This document shows, piece by piece, positions 802-12,467 of a stretch of DNA of 12,467 nt. Where the stretch lies: IMG/VR virus record IMGVR_UViG_2778261382_000004, positions 1 to 12,467 of that record; one strand, written 5' to 3'. This DNA comes from a virus. Taxonomy: Duplodnaviria > Heunggongvirae > Uroviricota > Caudoviricetes. The notes below the pieces were generated by a model. The model had not been told where the DNA came from and did not search any database. It was given only the letters and a program-made list of their open reading frames with translations. Every line of letters begins with the position of its first letter. Within the stretch, counting starts at the first letter, position 1. The position numbers and the translations under genes were made by a program.

Positions 802-2053
802 TTATTTTTCCCGCGAGGCGCTGCTGCGCGCCCTGAAAACCGGTCATAACCAGATTTTTCTGTCGGCCAGTAAAACGCAGGCGTATGTGTTCCGCGAATA
901 CATCATCGCCTTTGCCCGTCTGGTTGACGTTGACCTGACCGGTGACCCGATTGTCCTGGGCAATAACGGCGCAAAACTGATTTTTCTCGGCACCAACTCC
1001 AACACCGCACAGAGCCATAACGGCGACCTGTACGTCGACGAGATTTTCTGGATCCCGAATTTTCAGGTACTGCGTAAGGTGGCATCAGGTATGGCCTCAC
1101 AGAGTCACCTGCGCTCGACCTATTTCTCCACCCCGTCCACGCTGGCGCACGACGCCTACCCGTTCTGGTCGGGTGAACTGTTCAACCGGGGACGCGCCAG
1201 CGCCGCCGAACGTGTGGAAATCGACGTCAGTCATAACGCCCTTGCCAGCGGGCTTCTCTGTGCGGACGGCCAGTGGCGGCAGATTGTCACCATTGAGGAC
1301 GCCCTGAAAGGCGGCTGCACACTGTTCGACATTGAGCAGCTCAAACGTGAAAACAGCGCCGACGATTTTAAAAACCTGTTCATGTGTGAATTTGTTGACG
1401 ACAAGGCGTCGGTGTTCCCGTTCGAGGAGCTGCAACGCTGCATGGTCGACACGCTGGAAGAATGGGAAGACTATGCGCCGTTTGCCGCCAATCCGTTCGG
1501 CTCACGTCCGGTATGGATTGGTTACGACCCGTCACACCGTGGCGACAGCGCCGGATGCGTGGTGCTGGCACCGCCGGTGGTGGCCGGTGGCAAATTCAGA
1601 ATACTTGAGCGTCACCAGTGGAAAGGCATGGACTTTGCCACCCAGGCGGAATCCATCCGCAAACTCACCGAAAAATACAACGTCGAATACATCGGCATTG
1701 ATGCCACCGGCCTTGGTGTCGGCGTGTTCCAGCTCGTGCGCTCGTTCTATCCTGCCGCGCGCGATATCCGCTACACGCCGGAAATGAAAACCGCAATGGT
1801 GCTCAAGGCCAAAGACGTTATCCGCCGTGGCTGTCTGGAATATGACGTCAGCGCCACCGACATCACCAGCTCGTTTATGGCTATCCGCAAGACCATGACC
1901 AGCAGCGGACGCAGCGCCACCTATGAGGCCAGTCGCAGCGAGGAAGCCAGCCACGCCGACCTCGCCTGGGCGACCATGCACGCCCTGTTAAATGAGCCAC
2001 TCACCGCCGGTATCAGCACCCCGCTGACATCCACCATTCTGGAGTTTTACTGA
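779..2053 (+). pseudogene. P: Terminase large (ATPase/nuclease) subunit gpP, N-terminally truncated
   Basis: Protein-like sequence begins near codon 76 of ORF 554..2053 with a Walker-A-like SRQIGATFYFSREALL, followed by LYVDEIFWIP and a long terminase-like C-terminal part. The first 75 codons of the ORF (554-778) are Cys/Phe-rich nonsense that is antisense to the D fragment. The stop overlaps the Q start (TGATG at 2051-2055), as in a P-Q operon. Confidence 0.65.
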
Positions 2054-3087
2054 TGAGCAAGAAAGAAGGGAAAACACCGCAGCCAGCGGCAAAAACAATC
2101 ACCGCCAGCGCCCCGAAAATGGAAGCATTCACCTTTGGCGAGCCGGTGCCGGTACTCGACCGCCGTGACATTCTGGATTACGTCGAATGCATCAGTAACG
2201 GCAGATGGTATGAGCCGCCGGTCAGCTTTACCGGTCTGGCAAAAAGCCTGCGTGCTGCCGTGCATCACAGCTCACCGATTTACGTCAAACGCAATATTCT
2301 GGCCTCAACATTTATCCCGCATCCGTGGCTTTCGCAACAGGATTTCAGCCGCTTTGTGCTGGATTTTCTGGTGTTCGGTAATGCGTTTCTGGAAAAGCGT
2401 TACAGCACCACCGGTAAGGTCATCAGACTGGAAACCTCACCGGCAAAATATACCCGCCGTGGTGTGGAAGAGGATGTTTACTGGTGGGTGCCGTCCTTCA
2501 ACGAGCCGACACCTTTCACGCCCGGTTCCGTGTTTCACCTGCTGGAGCCGGATATTAATCAGGAGCTGTACGGCCTGCCGGAATATCTCAGCGCCCTTAA
2601 CTCTGCCTGGCTGAATGAGTCGGCCACGCTGTTCCGCCGCAAGTATTACGAAAACGGCGCACATGCCGGATACATCATGTACGTTACCGATGCCGTGCAG
2701 GATCGCAACGATATCGAAATGCTTCGCGAAAACATGGTGAAGTCGAAAGGCCGCAACAACTTTAAAAACCTGTTTCTCTATGCCCCGCAGGGGAAAGCCG
2801 ACGGCATTAAAATTATCCCGCTCAGTGAAGTGGCGACGAAGGACGATTTTTTTAATATCAAAAAAGCCAGCGCCGCTGACCTGCTGGACGCACACCGCAT
2901 CCCCTTTCAGTTGATGGGTGGCAAGCCGGAGAACGTCGGGTCACTGGGCGATATTGAGAAAGTGGCAAAGGTCTTTGTCCGCAATGAGCTAATCCCGTTA
3001 CAGGACAGGATTCGGGAAATAAACGGCTGGCTCGGCCAGGAGGTCATCCGCTTTAAAAACTACTCACTGGACACTGACAACGGCTGA
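2053..3087 (+). CDS. Q: Portal protein gpQ
   Basis: 344-aa ORF, the same length as P2 gpQ, directly downstream of and overlapping the terminase gene, followed by a terminator and the cos site. The sequence MSKKEGKTPQPAAKT...GKPENVGSLGDIEKVAKVFVRNELIPLQDRIREINGWLGQ is recognised as P2-type portal. Confidence 0.85.
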   Translation: MSKKEGKTPQPAAKTITASAPKMEAFTFGEPVPVLDRRDILDYVECISNGRWYEPPVSFTGLAKSLRAAVHHSSPIYVKRNILASTFIPHPWLSQQDFSRFVLDFLVFGNAFLEKRYSTTGKVIRLETSPAKYTRRGVEEDVYWWVPSFNEPTPFTPGSVFHLLEPDINQELYGLPEYLSALNSAWLNESATLFRRKYYENGAHAGYIMYVTDAVQDRNDIEMLRENMVKSKGRNNFKNLFLYAPQGKADGIKIIPLSEVATKDDFFNIKKASAADLLDAHRIPFQLMGGKPENVGSLGDIEKVAKVFVRNELIPLQDRIREINGWLGQEVIRFKNYSLDTDNG

Positions 3088-3092
3088 ACATC

Positions 3093-3114
3093 GCCGCCTG
3101 CGGGCGGCTTTTTT
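3093..3114 (+). terminator. Rho-independent terminator of the P-Q operon
   Basis: Perfect GC stem GCCGCC (3093-3098) / GGCGGC (3103-3108) with loop TGCG, followed by TTTTTT (3109-3114), 6 nt after the Q stop codon. Confidence 0.7.
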
Positions 3115-3256
3115 ACACCCCGTCATCACGCCCTCACACGCTCACCACCGCACAAAACAGCCCGCAGACACACCAACGCCCCGGCGCACAATCTAAACGC
3201 CATTACGACGCGCTGAGACGCTGAAAAAATAAAATCAGCACCACCGCCAGCGCGCA

Positions 3257-3275
3257 GTGCTTTCCCCGCCTCGCC
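3257..3275. other. cos site (19-nt cohesive-end sequence of P2/186/P4 type)
   Basis: gtgctttccccgcctcgcc at 3257-3275 is the reverse complement of GGCGAGGCGGGGAAAGCAC, which I recall as the P2-family 19-nt cohesive end. It lies about 170 bp beyond the Q stop, where cos is expected. Confidence 0.65.
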
Positions 3276-3333: not shown

Positions 3334-3518
3334 CACTAGCAGTATGTAAAAAGAGCAGATATAAGAAACAAATGCAGTTTCATGCAAAAAGCGACACACA
3401 TCATGTCATGAAACAAAGCCGCTAATGAACACTTGCTTTGGTTATCTTAAGGTTTTATCTTCAGCCTAACCTATTGATTGCATGAAACTAAAATGAACTC
3501 TCAGCAAGGAACGACTAT

Positions 3519-5477
3519 ATGTCAGATTTCGAAATTAAAATTGATTTGAATGTGCTAAATCACCTAGGGATGAGTCTCTATTCCAATACTCCCGCGGTAC
3601 TAACTGAGATTATATCAAATGCATGGGATGCAGATGCTCAAAATGTAGAAATTACACTTGATGTTGAGAAAGGAGAGGTCATCATTAAAGATGATGGTCA
3701 TGGCATGTCTAAAGATGACATTATTAATAAGTTCCTAAAAGTCGGTTATGCTCGCAGGGAACATGGAAGAGCCAAAAGCGATCATCTAAAACGTCAAGTT
3801 ATGGGCAGAAAAGGTATTGGTAAGCTTGCCATGTTTTCACTTGCCAATAAAATCCAAGTTTATTCGTACAAAAAGGGGGAACAGCCTCAGGCCTTTGAGG
3901 TAGATGTCAAAGATTTACAGCAAAGTATCAAAGAATCAAAAAACTATATTGCTGACTCCCTTGAAATACCCGAAAATCTTGCTTACGGCACTACAATTAA
4001 ATTATTTGAACTAAAAAAAGCCATTGATAGGACTCAAACTTACCTCAGAAAGCGAATAGCTCGTCGATTTAGCATTATTGGCCCCAACCATAACTTTACA
4101 GTTAAAATTAATGGGACCGATATTACACCGGCAGATAGAGATTTCCTTTCAGATCTCGAGTTCATTTGGGAATTTGGCGAATCCGACCCTGAAAGGATAA
4201 AATCCTGCACAAACATCACACAAAAAAACATATTACCAAATACTATTACCTTTGAAGGAAAAGATGTAAAAGTTAGTGGGTACATTGGCAGTGTAGTTAA
4301 GCCATCACAGTTAAAGAAAGACCCTGAAATATCTAACAACAGCATTACTGTAATCTCTCACGGACGTGTTTTTGAGGAGGACATATTATTAGAATTTGGA
4401 AGTGCTAAAGTATTCACCAATTATCTGGTCGGTGAAATAGTCGCCGATTTTCTAGATGATAACGAAAAGCCTGATATGGCAACATCTTCTCGTCAAAAAC
4501 TACAACAGAATGATCCAAGATACCCTGTACTTAAAGGTTTTCTGGAAAGAACGCTACAACTAATCGATAAAGATTGGGATAAATGGAGACGCGAAAAAGG
4601 AGTAAATGAAGTTAAAAGCAATACTCCAATAGTAAGTGAATGGCTGAATTCTCTCAAAAAACATGAGAGAGAAAGTGCCGAAAAGTTAATTGGACGAGTA
4701 AACACATTCCGTTTTTCTGGTAATGAGGAAGAACAAAAAGCAGCAAGAAAAACCGTATTAAAAAATACGGTATTAGCCTTTGAAAGACTTAGAATTCAAG
4801 ACAACCTTGATGCATTAGATAAAATAAGCAACCTTCAATCAGAAAATTTTAAAGATGTATTTGCATCTGTCAATGACATTGAAGCAAGCATGTTTTATGA
4901 AATTACTTCGCAACGCCTTAAAGTAATTGAAAAATTCCAAAAAATAACTGATGAAAATCAGCTTGAAAGAGCTGTACAAATGTATTTATATGATCATTTA
5001 TGGTTATTGGATCCTTCATGGGAAAGAGTCACAGGCACATCTGTTATGGAGCAAACATTGACCAAGGAACTAAAACAGATAAACCCTGATGCTGCTAGCG
5101 GTGCTCGTATTGATATCGCTTTCAAAACCGTTTCTGGCAAGCATGTAATTATTGAGATGAAACGACCTAAAGTGCACCCAGATATAATGAACCTAGTCGC
5201 ACAAGGTAATAAATATGTACAGGCAACGACACAATGGTTCTCCAATAACCCTAAAAATTGCCCAGGTGGAAATATACCGCATATAGAAGTAATATTCCTG
5301 GTTGGCTCTGGATATTTACAAGAGAACCAACACTTTATAAATATGCAATTACTTTCTATCAATGGAAAAATATTGACATATAATGACCTAATCGTGCAAT
5401 CAAAACAAGCCTATGCTGAATATCAAGACAAAAAGAATGATGCAGCTAGAATTATGAAAATAGTTGAGGGAATCTAA
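3519..5477 (+). CDS. GHKL (Bergerat-fold, HATPase_c_3-like) ATPase with a C-terminal PD-(D/E)xK-like nuclease motif; candidate restriction/effector component
   Basis: N-terminal GHKL motifs: E..SNAWDA (nt 3606-3632), DDGHGM (nt 3690-3704), GRKGIGKLA (nt 3804-3830). C-terminal ...GARIDIAFKTVSGKHVIIEMKRPK... has D (nt 5112-5114) then E-x-K (nt 5154-5162) with hydrophobic flanks, as in PD-(D/E)xK nucleases. AAGGA lies 8 nt upstream of the ATG. The gene is AT-rich relative to the prophage backbone. Confidence 0.7.
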   Translation: MSDFEIKIDLNVLNHLGMSLYSNTPAVLTEIISNAWDADAQNVEITLDVEKGEVIIKDDGHGMSKDDIINKFLKVGYARREHGRAKSDHLKRQVMGRKGIGKLAMFSLANKIQVYSYKKGEQPQAFEVDVKDLQQSIKESKNYIADSLEIPENLAYGTTIKLFELKKAIDRTQTYLRKRIARRFSIIGPNHNFTVKINGTDITPADRDFLSDLEFIWEFGESDPERIKSCTNITQKNILPNTITFEGKDVKVSGYIGSVVKPSQLKKDPEISNNSITVISHGRVFEEDILLEFGSAKVFTNYLVGEIVADFLDDNEKPDMATSSRQKLQQNDPRYPVLKGFLERTLQLIDKDWDKWRREKGVNEVKSNTPIVSEWLNSLKKHERESAEKLIGRVNTFRFSGNEEEQKAARKTVLKNTVLAFERLRIQDNLDALDKISNLQSENFKDVFASVNDIEASMFYEITSQRLKVIEKFQKITDENQLERAVQMYLYDHLWLLDPSWERVTGTSVMEQTLTKELKQINPDAASGARIDIAFKTVSGKHVIIEMKRPKVHPDIMNLVAQGNKYVQATTQWFSNNPKNCPGGNIPHIEVIFLVGSGYLQENQHFINMQLLSINGKILTYNDLIVQSKQAYAEYQDKKNDAARIMKIVEGI

Positions 5478-5482
5478 TTATA

Positions 5483-5506
5483 CCCCCCTGTTTTTTGACA
5501 GGGGGG
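5483..5506. terminator. GC-rich hairpin between convergent genes, probable bidirectional terminator
   Basis: CCCCCCTGT (5483-5491) / ACAGGGGGG (5498-5506) form a perfect 9-bp stem with loop TTTTTG, inside the 41-bp gap between the two convergent stop codons (5475-5477 and 5519-5521). There is no clean U-tract, so efficiency is uncertain. Confidence 0.45.
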
Positions 5507-5518
5507 ATGACATAAGTT

Positions 5519-6568
5519 TTAAATATTCATTTCTGACAAATGTTTTAAAATAGTTTCACCTACGACCTCACCAAGCCTAACAGGAACAGCATTACCTATT
5601 AAACGCGCAACTGTTCTCATTTCAATTTTTACATCATCAGGCCAAAACTCATACTTTTCTGGGAATGACTGTAATAGCGCAGCCTCTCTTAAACTTAATG
5701 CTCTATTTTGGACAGGGTGCCCAAAGCGTCCATTCCCATATCCAATACATTGAGTTGTAATTGTCGGTCCAAGTTTATCCCAACACATTCTCCCATATAC
5801 AGCAGTATATGTAGAACCACTTTCTTTTGTATGACATTTTGCTCTTAGCTCTTCTGGCCAATCACGCCATGTTCCACCAGGTTTTGATGCCATTATTCTT
5901 TTTATATTAATATCAGATAATGATGCAGAGCGATGTAGTTTATCTCCAGCGTGAACAGCACCGGCACTAATTTCAGGAAGATTACCGATTATATCTCGCA
6001 CCGTTTTATAATCATTCTTCTCATGAGTTGGTGGAATTATTTCTATTTCTCCATATTTTGATGCCAATAACACTAATCTTGAACGACTTTGTGCCATTCC
6101 ATAGTCTGGACAAAACACCACCCCATACCAAACAAAATAGCCATCATTTTTAAGAGACTTAATGAAGTCCTTAAAAACCTTATGATTCACCACTCGGGGA
6201 ACGTTTTCCATTGTAATAATATCTGGCTTTGCAAATTTAATTTGCTTAGCAAAGCTATAAAGCAAAGACCATCTTTTATCTTTTGAACGTACTACCCCTA
6301 ATTTAGCACTATTGGTATAGCTTGAAAAAGGTTGGCATGGGGCACAACCAGCCAAAACTCGAACCTTCGCTCCTTCGAAATATTTAACTAATTCGCCGTC
6401 CTCAATGTCTGTAACACTTTTCTGGACAAAGAGTGATTTATTATTTGTCTCATAGGCAAATCGACAGGCTGCATCTATATCATAACCTGCAACTACATTA
6501 AGCCCCGACTTCTGAAGACCGTGAGTCAAGCCACCCGCGCCACAGAATAAATCAACAACCTTAATCAA
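5519..6568 (-). CDS. DNA (cytosine-5)-methyltransferase
   Basis: Canonical m5C MTase motifs in order: I DLFCGAGG, IV GCAPCQPFS (catalytic Cys codon at 6335-6337), VI ENV, VIII QSRSRL, IX/X RFGHP...RALSLREAALLQSFP...IGNAVP. Start chosen at TTG 6566-6568, preceded by a strong SD AGAAGGAGG (6575-6583) with a 6-nt spacer. The tabulated ORF begins further upstream at TTG 6668-6670 without an SD. Confidence 0.85.
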   Translation of the reverse strand: MIKVVDLFCGAGGLTHGLQKSGLNVVAGYDIDAACRFAYETNNKSLFVQKSVTDIEDGELVKYFEGAKVRVLAGCAPCQPFSSYTNSAKLGVVRSKDKRWSLLYSFAKQIKFAKPDIITMENVPRVVNHKVFKDFIKSLKNDGYFVWYGVVFCPDYGMAQSRSRLVLLASKYGEIEIIPPTHEKNDYKTVRDIIGNLPEISAGAVHAGDKLHRSASLSDINIKRIMASKPGGTWRDWPEELRAKCHTKESGSTYTAVYGRMCWDKLGPTITTQCIGYGNGRFGHPVQNRALSLREAALLQSFPEKYEFWPDDVKIEMRTVARLIGNAVPVRLGEVVGETILKHLSEMNI

Positions 6569-6624
6569 GATAAACCTCCTTCTAATGCTGTGGGGATTGT
6601 AGCATTGTTCTTTCTCATCATCGA

Positions 6625-6655
6625 TGTTTACTTGATGCTTGATTTGTGAATACAA
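6625..6655. promoter_or_regulatory. 11-bp inverted repeat in the MTase leader; candidate operator
   Basis: ATGCTTGATTT (6625-6635) and AAATCAAGCAT (6645-6655) with a 9-bp spacer. It lies between a TTGACA hexamer (minus strand, 6670-6665) and the MTase SD. No U-tract follows, so it is unlikely to be an intrinsic terminator for A. Confidence 0.4.
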
Positions 6656-6679
6656 AATCAAGCATGTCAATCATTATTG

Positions 6680-8953
6680 TTAGTTTGTTTCAAATCCCGC
6701 CCAACCATCAGAAATCGGATATGAAAACGTTTTCCCATCATAATTTACGGTCGCGCCACGCGCCAGCGCCTCAAGCTCCCATCGCTGCGGCCTGATACCG
6801 TTCTGAGCAAGGTCAACGCGGATACGGGTAATTTGCATTCGTTCCGACCGGGCCAGTCTGGCCGATGGTGCAATTTCATGTGGTTTTAACGAGCTTCCGT
6901 TTCTTTGCTGACGATTTGGCGTTCTCCGACCGTGTTTTAATGCACCTCTGAGCGCCCTCACGACCTCCGGGTCACTCCATTCGATAACACTGTCATCAAC
7001 CAGATTAAGCACTGCTGCGGCGTGCTCAGAAGGTGTGGGAGCCGGTAACGAAGTATCACCACCGGTGAGTTTTCCACAGTTATTGACAGGACTCCGAGGC
7101 GCGGCGATGCCGCTTTTTAAAGTCAAAGGCTCAACGACCGGCACTTTCGGAACAATGCGCCAGTCCGTCGTTCTGGTGATATGAATATGACGCGCGCCGA
7201 GATGCGGCGCGTAAATGCCGACCACTCTCTCGACTTCTTCCTCGTACTCGTTAACGTCATCCGACGGGCTACGGGCAACCCTGACAGTCTGGCAATCGCG
7301 CGGGACATTTGCCCCACCCTGCGCGCTGATATACAGCGCAAAATCACCACTGTCTGCGGCGGCGCGTGCAGCCTCGACGCGCTCGTCAAACTCATCAGCA
7401 ATGCTGACGCCGCGAGGCAATTTGCGTAGTTCACGGTAAGCCCCCATTGTCGGCAGGCCAACCGTTTTAAATTGCGGAATGCGCCACGTTGACGCCCATG
7501 CGGTAACAGCCGCGGCAGTATCTTTCAGCGGTCTGCCGGTATCGTTATCGAGCTGCCCATCCAGTGCATAGCCGTCGATATTTTTTGAGATGTATTTCGC
7601 GATATACCCCGCAGCACCGCCCCGGTTAAGGTGTTTTTCCTGAAAACGGTTTCGCGCGGCTCCTCTTTCGTCGCCATCCTCTTTGAGCGCATAGCGACGC
7701 ATGATTTCGATAATCTGGTTACGCTGGCGTGGATGACAAAAAAGCATCATATGCCAGTGCGGCGTTCCGTCGTGGTGTGGCTCGACGACACGCAAACCGT
7801 AGACCTGTAAATCATTATCCTTGAATGCCGTGCGCATCAGACTCCAGATACGGCAGAGATAACGCTGCGCATCCTTTGGATTAAATGCCTCATCGTTCCA
7901 GCCGTGATTAAGCTGAACGGTTTTACTTTCGCCTTTTCCGACCTGACGTGTCGGGTGATACTTTGACGGCGCGGTCAGCGTGATAAACATCCCCAAATCA
8001 CCCTCTGCGGCGGCGTAACGCTCAATACCGGCAATGGTGTTCATCAGCTCCATCCGGCGAATTTCTGGATTAGAAATACTGCCCATCACCTTACTGATAA
8101 GGTCGATGCGCTCGCCGGTTTCCCTGTTTTCAAGGTCACACGATTTAAGAAATTCCAGATTTGCCTGGCGGCGCGCACGCACATCACGAATGGCATGTTT
8201 ACTGGCATAAGGAGAACGGTCTTTATTGACCTCCCCGACAGCAATCAGTAACGCCTCATGCCAGCGCATACGCTGGCCTTTAAGCTGACTAATCCACCAC
8301 TCATCGTTAAACAGACGGGCAATGGCAGAATATGCCTGCCTCGTGGTCATCTGTCCTTTACTGTATTTTTTCCAGTAGAGCGGGGAAATATTGAAAGCAC
8401 GTGCAGCGCCAGCAACATGACCATACAGGTGAGCCTGCGCCTCATCCGTAAACAGCGATTCTTTTTCACCATGCGCATCAACCCATGCATCGCAGAGTTC
8501 CTCATACATCATGAAAAGCTGCGATGAGATACGGGCGGCAAACTTTTTCAGCTCCTTGTCATTCATTCCAGGCAGGCGCGCATAGTGGTCACGCTCTGCC
8601 AGAAACAGCAACGACGCGTCGGTGTTCATTTCATGGCGCTGATTCACGCGCTCAATGCGCGGCCATAAACGACGCTGAAAAGTGGATGTGAGGAAATAAA
8701 ACCCGTGCACCGGGCTTTTATTGCGCCGGATGTAGTCATAGCGTGAAGTAAACAGCGAACGCAAAAAGTAAGGCAGGCGGTTAATCGTGGATAAAACACC
8801 TTGCACCTGACGCATCTCGTCACGTGTAAGGGGTCTTTCGCGCCCGACGGCCTCGCGTGGCGCGTTCCATGCATAAGCACCGGTAAACGTCTTACCGGTG
8901 CCTGCGGCAAATGCTGACGGAGGGACAAAACGCCCGGAGGCTTTAACGTCCAT
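6680..8953 (-). CDS. A: Replication initiation protein gpA (rolling-circle nicking enzyme)
   Basis: Large ORF of P2 gpA size and position at the end of the early operon. It contains an HUH-like metal-binding motif HWHMMLF and, about 50 residues downstream, an active-site-like YIAKYISK. Start set at the ATG at 8951-8953 (MDVKASGRF...); the tabulated ORF begins at an upstream TTG at 8995. Confidence 0.85.
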   Translation of the reverse strand: MDVKASGRFVPPSAFAAGTGKTFTGAYAWNAPREAVGRERPLTRDEMRQVQGVLSTINRLPYFLRSLFTSRYDYIRRNKSPVHGFYFLTSTFQRRLWPRIERVNQRHEMNTDASLLFLAERDHYARLPGMNDKELKKFAARISSQLFMMYEELCDAWVDAHGEKESLFTDEAQAHLYGHVAGAARAFNISPLYWKKYSKGQMTTRQAYSAIARLFNDEWWISQLKGQRMRWHEALLIAVGEVNKDRSPYASKHAIRDVRARRQANLEFLKSCDLENRETGERIDLISKVMGSISNPEIRRMELMNTIAGIERYAAAEGDLGMFITLTAPSKYHPTRQVGKGESKTVQLNHGWNDEAFNPKDAQRYLCRIWSLMRTAFKDNDLQVYGLRVVEPHHDGTPHWHMMLFCHPRQRNQIIEIMRRYALKEDGDERGAARNRFQEKHLNRGGAAGYIAKYISKNIDGYALDGQLDNDTGRPLKDTAAAVTAWASTWRIPQFKTVGLPTMGAYRELRKLPRGVSIADEFDERVEAARAAADSGDFALYISAQGGANVPRDCQTVRVARSPSDDVNEYEEEVERVVGIYAPHLGARHIHITRTTDWRIVPKVPVVEPLTLKSGIAAPRSPVNNCGKLTGGDTSLPAPTPSEHAAAVLNLVDDSVIEWSDPEVVRALRGALKHGRRTPNRQQRNGSSLKPHEIAPSARLARSERMQITRIRVDLAQNGIRPQRWELEALARGATVNYDGKTFSYPISDGWAGFETN

Positions 8954-9218
8954 GTGAGCCAAAAGCCTCTGAACAACGCTTGCTGAGTTGCTCAACCTGC
9001 GCGTTTAAATCAGCAAAAGATTTTGCGCTTCCGGTCAGAATATCGTGATGCATCAGGCCGGAAACGAGCTGGCTTAATTTCGGGTAATAACCAACCACCG
9101 CCAGCCATTCCTGACCGGCGTTTTTACCGCTTTCCGCTCTCTTTTTCTCGTGGAGAATAAACTGAAAGCTGTCACTGGTAACGACATAACGTTCGCCAAT
9201 TTCAATACGAATACTCAT
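8943..9218 (-). CDS. Hypothetical early protein (position of P2 orf83)
   Basis: 91-aa ORF between the zinc-finger gene and A, 4-nt overlap with the upstream gene (ATGA), same strand and compact spacing as the P2 early operon. Confidence 0.55.
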   Translation of the reverse strand: MSIRIEIGERYVVTSDSFQFILHEKKRAESGKNAGQEWLAVVGYYPKLSQLVSGLMHHDILTGSAKSFADLNAQVEQLSKRCSEAFGSHGR

Positions 9219-11123: not shown

Positions 11124-11417
11124 ATGCAGACATTCGAAAAACTGAAAGCGATTAGGAAAGCAGAAGGCTTAACACAGGCGAAATTCAGCGAAATTAGCGG
11201 GATAGCTCTAGGAACAGTCAAAAATTACGAAAGTGGGCATAAAGACCCTGGTCTCAGCATCGTTATGCGAGTCACAAATACGCCTTTATTTAAAAAATAT
11301 ACGCTCTGGTTAATGACTGGTGATACGTCACCACAAGCTGGTCAGATCGCGCCGGCTCTCGCACACATTGGGCAAAAACCAACAGAATCAGACCACTCCG
11401 AAAAACAGACTGGTTAA
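11124..11417 (+). CDS. C: C immunity repressor (P2 type)
   Basis: 97-aa ORF with an N-terminal HTH-like AEGLTQAKFSEISGIALGTVKNYESG and C-terminal ...KYTLWLMTG...SGQIAPALAH..., resembling the P2 C repressor (99 aa). It is upstream of int on the same strand and divergent from cox. Confidence 0.8.
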   Translation: MQTFEKLKAIRKAEGLTQAKFSEISGIALGTVKNYESGHKDPGLSIVMRVTNTPLFKKYTLWLMTGDTSPQAGQIAPALAHIGQKPTESDHSEKQTG

Positions 11418-11486
11418 CACTCTATAAACATTACATTTTCACTATTTGTTACCAAGATGGTGAATACAGCGTCAGAGGGCTTTCTT

Positions 11487-12467
11487 ATGTCAATTAAGAA
11501 GCTCGATGATGGACGCTATGAAGTGGACATTAGACCTCGCGGTCGCGACGGAAAACGCATCCGCAGGAAATTTGAAAGAAAAGCTGAGGCTGTAGCATTT
11601 GAGCGATACACAATCGCCTACGCCAGCCAGAAAGAATGGGCAGGTCAGCGAGCAGATCGCAGAACTTTGAGTGAGTTGCTGGACATCTGGTGGAAATATC
11701 ACGGGCAAAACCACGAGCATGGAACAAAAGAGTTTAATCATCTGCTCAAAACCATCAGCGGCATAGGTGATATACCAGTGAGCCGGATGAGCAAAAGAGC
11801 TTTGATGGATTATCGTTCCATGCGACTACGTGATGGTATCAGTGCCGCAACGATAAACCGTGACATGTACCGATTATCCGGCATGTTCACAAAATTAATT
11901 CAATTGGATGAATTTTCCGGGCAACACCCAATTCACGGACTGCCGCCACTGGCGGAGGCCAACCCTGAAATGACGTTCCTGGAAAAAGCAGAAATCGAAA
12001 AACTGTTAAATGTTTTGGATGGTGATGACTTACTTGTCGCACTTTTATGTCTGAGCACTGGAGGAAGATGGACGGAAGTTGCCACGCTAAAACCAGCACA
12101 GATTACAAATTGCAGGGTTACCTTCCTGAAAACCAAAAACGGTAAAAAGCGAACCGTGCCGATTTCTGAGGAACTGGAGAAAAAAGTTAAAGAGGAGGCC
12201 AGCGCTAAATTATTCAAAGTTGATTATGAGAAGTTTTGCGGGATTTTACGCAGAGTGAAGCCAGATATACCACCCAATCAGGCAACCCACATCCTGCGGC
12301 ATACATTCGCAAGCCATTTCATGATGAATGGGGGCAATATAATCGCACTGCAACAGATTCTGGGACATGCGAGCATTCAGCAGACGATGGCCTATGCGCA
12401 CCTTGCGCCTGACTACCTGCAAAATGCCGTCGCACTGAATCCTCTAAAAGGCGGAGTGACGTTATAA
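11487..12467 (+). CDS. int: Tyrosine integrase (P2 Int type)
   Basis: Starts MSIKKLDDGRYEVDIRPRGRDGKRIRRKF... at the ATG at 11487, with GAGGG 8 nt upstream; the tabulated ORF starts 10 codons earlier without an SD. The C-terminal catalytic region has HILRHTFASHF (HxxR) and the tyrosine in QTMAYAHL. The stop codon is the last 3 nt of the window. Confidence 0.85.
   Translation: MSIKKLDDGRYEVDIRPRGRDGKRIRRKFERKAEAVAFERYTIAYASQKEWAGQRADRRTLSELLDIWWKYHGQNHEHGTKEFNHLLKTISGIGDIPVSRMSKRALMDYRSMRLRDGISAATINRDMYRLSGMFTKLIQLDEFSGQHPIHGLPPLAEANPEMTFLEKAEIEKLLNVLDGDDLLVALLCLSTGGRWTEVATLKPAQITNCRVTFLKTKNGKKRTVPISEELEKKVKEEASAKLFKVDYEKFCGILRRVKPDIPPNQATHILRHTFASHFMMNGGNIIALQQILGHASIQQTMAYAHLAPDYLQNAVALNPLKGGVTL

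Follow-up and report, generated by a model that had tools for sequence, protein, structure and literature searches.

The restriction enzyme R.HgiDII combines an N-terminal GHKL domain with an unassigned C-terminal domain (Orlowski and Bujnicki, PMC2441816), and its partner M.HgiDII is a C5-cytosine (m5C) DNA methyltransferase for GTCGAC (PMC5867850). Pairs of GHKL and Dcm proteins, named paraMORC3, have been predicted to act as restriction-modification systems and were described as sporadic, mobile and common in proteobacteria (Iyer, Abhiman and Aravind 2008, PMC2292703). Type II systems devoid of a controller (C) protein are regulated by promoter methylation, as in CfrBI, by methyltransferase autoregulation or by antisense/convergent transcription (PMC3874152). 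Finally, the region between replication gene A (gpA) and cos of phage P2 is a known variable hotspot of phage defence genes (Rousset et al. 2022, PMC9122126). Here, we analysed a stretch of 12,467 nucleotides of a Caudoviricetes virus (IMG/VR record IMGVR_UViG_2778261382_000004, hereafter the window), in which a C5-cytosine DNA methyltransferase gene (5519..6568, minus strand) directly follows gpA. We consider it likely that, taken as a whole, this is an HgiDII-family modification gene carried as P2 cargo, translated from an inner TTG, transcribed from its own promoter, restrained by its non-ATG start and probably also reached by early read-through, which a hairpin at the junction perhaps reduces.

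The methyltransferase, a protein of 349 amino acids starting at a TTG (6568-6566), was assigned by its PF00145 match, by N-terminal alignment and by cassette comparison. PF00145 matched with E=9e-56 and 190 bits against a cut-off of 22, residues 2-341 covering positions 1-323 of the 324-position profile, and TIGR00675 matched with 130 bits against a cut-off of 100.65. The m5C motifs I, IV, VI, VIII and X, canonically defined as FxGxGG, PCQ, ENV, QxRxR and GNAVP, are all present, as DLFCGAGG, GCAPCQPFS, TMENVP, QSRSRLV and IGNAVPV, respectively; their core residues are invariant across 39 aligned sequences, with the remainder mostly conserved. No N-terminal DNA-binding extension was seen by Pfam or in the homolog alignment. 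On the opposite strand (3519..5477, plus) lies a BbrUII/HgiDII-family restriction enzyme of 652 amino acids with an N-terminal GHKL ATPase domain. It matched the NCBIfam equivalog NF050001 with 751.4 bits (cut-off 550; residues 4-651 on positions 1-658 of 659), the PADLOC model REase_II at 2e-91 and, over residues 26-149, Pfam HATPase_c_3 with E=2.3e-25. RefSeq places this gene in the BbrUII/HgiDII family, while GenBank record PV340563.1 names it 'paraMORC3'. The modification (M) and restriction (R) genes are linked in the window and in ten related loci, nine of them convergent (L012-L014, L021-L025 and L027) and one tandem (L026). By these matches, the methyltransferase gene is the predicted modification half of a two-gene HgiDII-family Type II restriction-modification cassette. 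The original prediction spoke of protective methylation; the gene does not stand alone, however, but is partnered with the convergent restriction enzyme. The predicted target of the methyltransferase, GTCGAC, is assigned only from the family membership of that partner.

The likeness to HgiDII/BbrUII thus comprises a full-length NF050001 match above the cut-off, an N-terminal GHKL domain and an m5C partner with canonical motifs. Unlike those systems, this copy resides on a P2-like phage rather than on a chromosome, and its two genes converge with a terminator hairpin between them. With the paraMORC3-Dcm modules, the locus shares a GHKL protein, described there as GHKL(+S5), that has a C-terminal extension and is encoded beside a cytosine methylase. 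By definition, paraMORC3 joins GHKL and S5 to a C-terminal restriction-endonuclease-fold domain bearing E-D-ExK; only the GHKL part was compared here, and the name is that of the deposited record. A mention of 'paraMORC' in the V. cholerae WASA paper proved irrelevant to this system.

Two TTG codons compete as the start of the methyltransferase. The longest open reading frame (ORF; 383 amino acids, 5519..6670, minus strand) opens at a TTG at 6670-6668 that forms the first three bases of a TTGACA hexamer, and no purine-rich stretch precedes it (ACAATAATGA). Thirty-four codons into this frame, the inner TTG at 6568-6566 follows the Shine-Dalgarno sequence AGAAGGAGG (6583-6575, minus strand) at a spacing of 6 nt (TTTATC). 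Four AGGAGG sites occur in the 12.5-kb window, against about five expected from shuffles, and this is the sole one on either strand with a start codon 4-9 nt after it. In the shorter protein, motif I begins at residue 6 and the Pfam domain at residue 2. The homolog alignment (38 homologs, 56-87% identity) is consistent with this arrangement: about 30 of the 38 start 1-3 residues before IKVVDLFCGAGG, and the usual length is 340-352 amino acids. We also compared the cassette DNA of the window with that of eight relatives (L012-L014 and L021-L025; 65-89% protein identity). The codon aligned with 6568 is TTG in every relative, and hence in nine of nine cassettes, all of which also keep the GGAGG core of the Shine-Dalgarno sequence. 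In five of the eight relatives, the frame is closed by stops lying 2-22 codons upstream of the TTG, and no possible start falls between; three of the eight lack any alternative start before motif I.

Together, these comparisons indicate that translation starts at the inner TTG, yielding the protein of 349 amino acids. The original prediction had anticipated each of these features, namely an upstream TTG without a ribosome-binding site, an inner TTG behind a well-spaced Shine-Dalgarno sequence, motif I a few residues from the N terminus and initiation at the inner codon, and all of them held. The start is correct yet not new, because PV340563.1 and RefSeq WP_000598783.1 both already annotate the 1050-nt coding sequence 5519-6568 (349 amino acids). 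A protein of 383 residues begun at the upstream TTG is highly improbable and, by comparison of the loci, effectively refuted. It would correspond to the longest ORF, and two database homologs (P0002 and P0003) are called with similar N-terminal extensions, but that similarity is an artefact of promoter and Shine-Dalgarno DNA being read as protein: EQCYN in these homologs translates GAACAATGCTACAAT of the -10 region, and RRRFIL translates the Shine-Dalgarno region. The 34-codon extension itself is not conserved, lacks a Shine-Dalgarno sequence before its first codon and would make the protein longer than is typical of the family. The upstream stops of the five relatives rule against it as well. 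Moreover, the extension overlaps the conserved methyltransferase promoter described below, and the TTG at 6670 would lie outside the transcript from that promoter.

Aligning the 230 nt upstream of the start in the nine cassettes gave a clear footprint, in which unalignable flanks are followed by a CATCGATG box, a variable spacer, TG(C/T)TACAAT, a variable stretch, GGAGG and the TTG. In the window, the box is an 8-bp palindrome (6619..6626, minus strand) whose last six bases, TCGATG, form a putative -35 element. Seventeen nucleotides separate TCGATG from the -10 hexamer, which is part of the extended -10 element TGCTACAAT (6596..6604, minus strand); TG(C/T)TACAAT is invariant in all nine close cassettes. 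Inclusion of loci from V. cholerae (L026), Providencia (L027) and Yersinia (L028) extended the comparison to 12 gammaproteobacterial loci, the most distant at 59% protein identity. Measured from its first base, the box lies exactly 22 nt ahead of the TG in all 12, being exact in ten and carrying one change in two, and TGnTACAAT is retained in 11, including V. cholerae and Yersinia. The Providencia locus keeps the box and the TGn, with TAAGCT as its -10 hexamer (TGTTAAGCT). No locus (4-12 kb) contains the box more than twice, and a single exact copy is present in the window, where TGnTAnAAT has only two sites.

The elements are present irrespective of gene context. Homology between the cassettes begins at about 6626-6640 of the window, just upstream of the box, and the promoter, Shine-Dalgarno sequence and non-ATG start are conserved jointly in enterobacterial, Vibrio and Yersinia relatives, whatever lies upstream. 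Box and TGnTACAAT are present outside P2-like phages in V. cholerae, where M and R are tandem, overlapping and located beside an integrase, and in Yersinia, where the GHKL partner is missing. As an outgroup, genome contigs were scanned with the methyltransferase protein; distant homologs from other phyla (37-56% identity) have no CATCGATG box and mostly ATG starts. We conclude from this footprint that the methyltransferase carries a conserved, putative extended -10 sigma-70 promoter, TCGATG-17 nt-TG-c-TACAAT, at 6624-6596, and that this promoter appears to travel with the gene. Transcription is predicted to start near 6589, so that the leader would measure about 20 nt. A promoter of its own had been assumed for the gene from the beginning but had not been located; the footprint now places it at 6626-6596. 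Several points weigh against this assignment. The -35 hexamer agrees with TTGACA at only three of six positions, although no other element of the region is as well conserved; a simple promoter scan made no call at 6626-6596; and the promoter, the transcript start and the read-through considered below are all deduced from DNA sequence. The TTGACA at 6670-6665 was also considered as a second promoter and was rejected, as no acceptable -10 hexamer lies 16-18 nt from it (ACAAAT, CACAAA, CAAATC). The Yersinia locus adjoins an ssrA-side integrase, and GmrSD and HEPN genes take the place of the GHKL enzyme there.

Across the same 12 loci, the start codon is TTG in ten, GTG in two and ATG in none. The codons that follow have changed at synonymous positions (ATT/ATA, AAG/AAA, GTT/GTA/GTG), while the start stays non-ATG. 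A single T-to-A change would give ATG, yet none is seen despite the synonymous drift, which suggests that a weak initiation codon has been selected for. The non-ATG start would hold the methyltransferase level down, and may have been selected to do so, which fits the absence of ATG in 12 diverged loci. A strong Shine-Dalgarno sequence partly offsets the weak codon. On the other side, the shared TTG and the shared orientation may be partly explicable by descent from one ancestral insertion, and with these sequences common descent and selection are not fully separable.

The conservation of the palindrome raises a different possibility, namely that CATCGATG is an operator or a methylation-sensitive switch, similar to that of CfrBI, that substitutes for the missing C protein. 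In favour of such a site, the 8-bp palindrome is a poor match to the -35 consensus, yet keeps a fixed spacing in 12 of 12 loci with differing gene arrangements and is rare within each locus. The cassette also has no third gene: no database-called gene was found inside it at any locus examined, the small overlapping ORFs of the raw list not having been screened for helix-turn-helix motifs. Control through methylation of promoter sites is known in other systems, CfrBI among them (references in PMC3874152), and as in other C-protein-free systems, the locus combines the absence of a C gene with two convergent genes and, here, a palindrome over the methyltransferase -35. Nevertheless, we regard this explanation as unlikely. 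The two variant loci (CCTCGATG and CATCGAAG) break the palindrome while retaining TCGAnG at 17 nt, as expected of a plain -35 element. The characterised target of the family, GTCGAC, is not contained in the box and is absent from both promoters of the cassette, its only sites in the window being at 1034 and 1445. The methyltransferase lacks the N-terminal extension with which it could bind DNA. Unlike CfrBI-type systems, the palindrome gives no sign of being either a target or a binding site, and the terminator hairpin between the genes argues against extensive convergent interference. Only as a distant prospect do we mention a broader proposal, by which HgiDII-family cassettes of gammaproteobacteria would share an undescribed, C-protein-free module of -35 palindrome, extended -10 and obligatory non-ATG start, the palindrome, as an operator or epigenetic switch, timing M relative to R on entry of the phage into a naive host and the early-operon position giving M a head start.

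In addition to its own promoter, the methyltransferase could be served by transcripts of the early operon. The stop codon of gpA (6682-6680) and the inner TTG are separated by a 111-nt gap on the same strand, in agreement with the roughly 110 bp given earlier. A consensus scan found no hairpin-plus-T-run terminator between gpA and the methyltransferase; the original prediction had likewise seen no intrinsic terminator in the gap, but had overlooked an 11-bp hairpin without a U-tract. This hairpin is formed by an inverted repeat whose 11-nt arms pair perfectly around a loop of 9 nt, ATGCTTGATTT-N9-AAATCAAGCAT (6635..6665, minus strand), and folds as RNA at -11.7 to -13 kcal/mol. The sequence after the stem, CAAGUAAACAUCG / CAAGTAAACATCG, contains no U-tract, and the hairpin therefore does not qualify as an intrinsic terminator of the canonical kind. 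No obvious rut site was found either: the spacer is A/T-rich (C 20 and G 19 of 111) and offers no C-rich, G-poor stretch, which is not proof of absence. By eye, the repeat contained no Ogr/Delta-type TGT-N12-ACA late-promoter dyad and no P2 Cox, C or IHF-like site, and Rfam at a permissive threshold returned only chance-level matches far below gathering scores.

The position of the gene resembles that of the first gene in the corresponding slot of P2, where orf91 overlaps the A stop codon, which puts it in the early unit, and tin and old converge on orf91 from a promoter near cos. Here, too, the first gene of an AT-rich gpA-cos slot is co-oriented with gpA and the next gene is convergent from a candidate promoter near cos. 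Unlike orf91, which is not known to have a promoter of its own, the methyltransferase is set off from gpA by the 111-nt spacer, in which its dedicated, conserved promoter and the hairpin are located. The methyltransferase is co-oriented with gpA in ten of ten P2-like contexts. Thus, early-operon transcripts may extend into the gene in the course of infection and lytic growth, supplementing its expression, a proposal based on co-orientation, the 111-nt distance to gpA, the lack of a canonical terminator and the slot shared with orf91. We give such read-through about an even chance of contributing something.

Two observations speak against it. First, most relatives (L021-L025 and L012-L013) have a DinI-like gene, often together with an ORF of 62 amino acids (phrog_698), between gpA and the methyltransferase, and the lineage of the window lacks both; upstream ORFs of L012 and L013 correspond to the gpA C terminus and the DinI-like gene. 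Direct adjacency occurs only in the lineage of the window and in one Providencia prophage and, with one or two small genes intervening in most relatives, is a peculiarity of the lineage rather than a conserved design. Second, the hairpin lies between gpA and the promoter and could stop, pause or process early transcripts even without a U-tract. Taken further, the methyltransferase would be insulated: the hairpin at 6635-6665 would terminate, pause or process transcription and set the 3' end of the gpA mRNA, leaving the gene to its own promoter in lysogeny and lytic growth alike. This alternative is possible, though in our judgement doubtful. The stem is perfect and stable, it lies 15 nt after the A stop, directly upstream of the promoter box, and weak terminator-like hairpins are also found upstream of the promoter in L012 and L023. 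The conservation of the promoter everywhere suggests, in addition, that it could suffice. Yet the stem is AT-rich and fails the definition of an intrinsic terminator, and in L021 and L027 the equivalent position lacks any terminator-like site. Among the searched phages, IMG/VR and E. coli genomes, the inverted repeat was found only in the same prophage lineage, and it is absent from the eight related cassettes; being confined to one near-clonal lineage, its conservation carries no functional signal. The surrounding junction of about 50 nt (6641-6691) matches neither the backbone nor other cassettes, is likewise limited to that lineage and may be a deletion scar. The hairpin itself might serve to pause or process transcripts or to stabilise the A mRNA at its 3' end, or it might be a scar.

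In the account that we favour, with both a promoter of its own and some early read-through, the former would give constitutive, modest expression of the methyltransferase in the lysogen, and the lineage-specific hairpin may reduce or process the latter. The original prediction had tied read-through to a boost of protective methylation at prophage induction. That rationale is weak: the immunity region is P2-type, with a C repressor of 97 amino acids and Cox (Pfam; PV340563.1 annotation). P2-type phages are not known to be SOS-inducible, and a boost from the early operon would therefore matter mainly on infection or lysogenisation of an unmethylated host and during lytic replication, rather than at prophage induction. 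On entry, the host chromosome would need protection before the restriction enzyme accumulates; during lytic replication, new phage DNA, with its two GTCGAC sites in the window, would need protection in turn. In practical terms the gain is modest, since the gene is annotated already, its restriction-modification family has a name and the phage defence hotspot in which it sits is known. What is added is the conserved promoter/leader/non-ATG module, the overlooked junction hairpin and a conserved convergent terminator. Two points may be useful for studying the establishment of phage-borne restriction-modification systems in new hosts that survive it, namely the compact module kept with the methyltransferase across Enterobacteriaceae, Vibrio and Yersinia and the constant co-orientation with the early replication operon; both provide testable handles.

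At the far end of the methyltransferase gene, a GC-rich 9-bp hairpin (5483..5506; -18.4 kcal/mol) occupies the 41-nt spacer between the convergent stop codons. A strong, non-homologous hairpin lies in the equivalent spacer (33-65 nt) of ten of ten convergent cassettes, several of them with flanking A and T runs, indicating that the hairpin at 5483-5506 is a probable bidirectional terminator. It would keep methyltransferase transcripts, whichever of the two sources they come from, from continuing antisense into the restriction gene. The restriction gene follows the opposite design to that of the methyltransferase, with an ATG start (GTG in one locus) and a weak CAAGGAA Shine-Dalgarno sequence. 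About 60-75 nt upstream of it, the four closest cassettes (the window, L012, L013 and L014) share the arrangement TTGnnT-17-TATCTT, which in the window reads TTGCTT-17-TATCTT (3433..3461, plus strand) and is a candidate promoter. In two loci (L035, GCA_050200525.1; L040, GCA_964051075.1), a 1-nt insertion shifts the frame of the restriction enzyme, with a stop at residue 246, while the methyltransferase and its promoter remain identical; in some strains, the system thus seems to be on its way to an orphan methylase.

The window comprises the end of a P2-like (Peduovirus) E. coli prophage that holds immunity and replication genes, joined to the packaging end. It shares 99.9% identity with the Escherichia phage PhiR44_1 (PV340563.1), on which a literature search found no paper. 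By ORF list and Pfam, the window encodes an integrase (11457-12467, plus strand), the C repressor, a helix-turn-helix protein (11124-11417, plus strand), and the portal protein Q (2053-3087, plus strand), with terminase P upstream of Q. The early operon is encoded on the minus strand, its last gene being gpA (6680..8995, minus strand; Pfam Phage_GPA, E=1.8e-122). A P2-type cos, the reverse complement of GGCGAGGCGGGGAAAGCAC, was located at 3257-3275 (minus strand) by comparison with the P2 cosR sequence and forms the far edge of the cargo slot, which spans cos to gpA, the slot that holds orf91, tin and old in P2. Backbone homology to P2, Wphi and other P2-like phages stops at about 6692 of the window (BLAST, query 1293-1294), and the GC content is 36-38% in the cassette versus 53% in the gpA and Q backbone. 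Given its AT-richness, the end of backbone homology and the position of cos, the methyltransferase/restriction pair is, on sequence grounds, identified as cargo of the gpA-cos hotspot already known from P2.

The 3.4-kb cargo segment is at least 99% identical in 29 of 5426 complete E. coli genomes, with gpA adjoining every time, and thousands of indexed assemblies contain exactly this methyltransferase protein. When public assemblies with the protein were examined for contigs shaped like transcripts, those returned were only the longest ones, which are genomic. Within the prophage, cos is placed between the portal terminator (about 3093-3120) and the promoter region of the restriction gene. The start of gpA is ambiguous as well: the longest ORF, from a TTG, encodes 771 amino acids, RefSeq gives 757 and the coding sequence in PV340563.1 has 2283 nt. 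Finally, one E. coli genome (GCA_030283945.1; L033 and L034) carries two copies of the prophage segment with the cassette, at different chromosomal positions.

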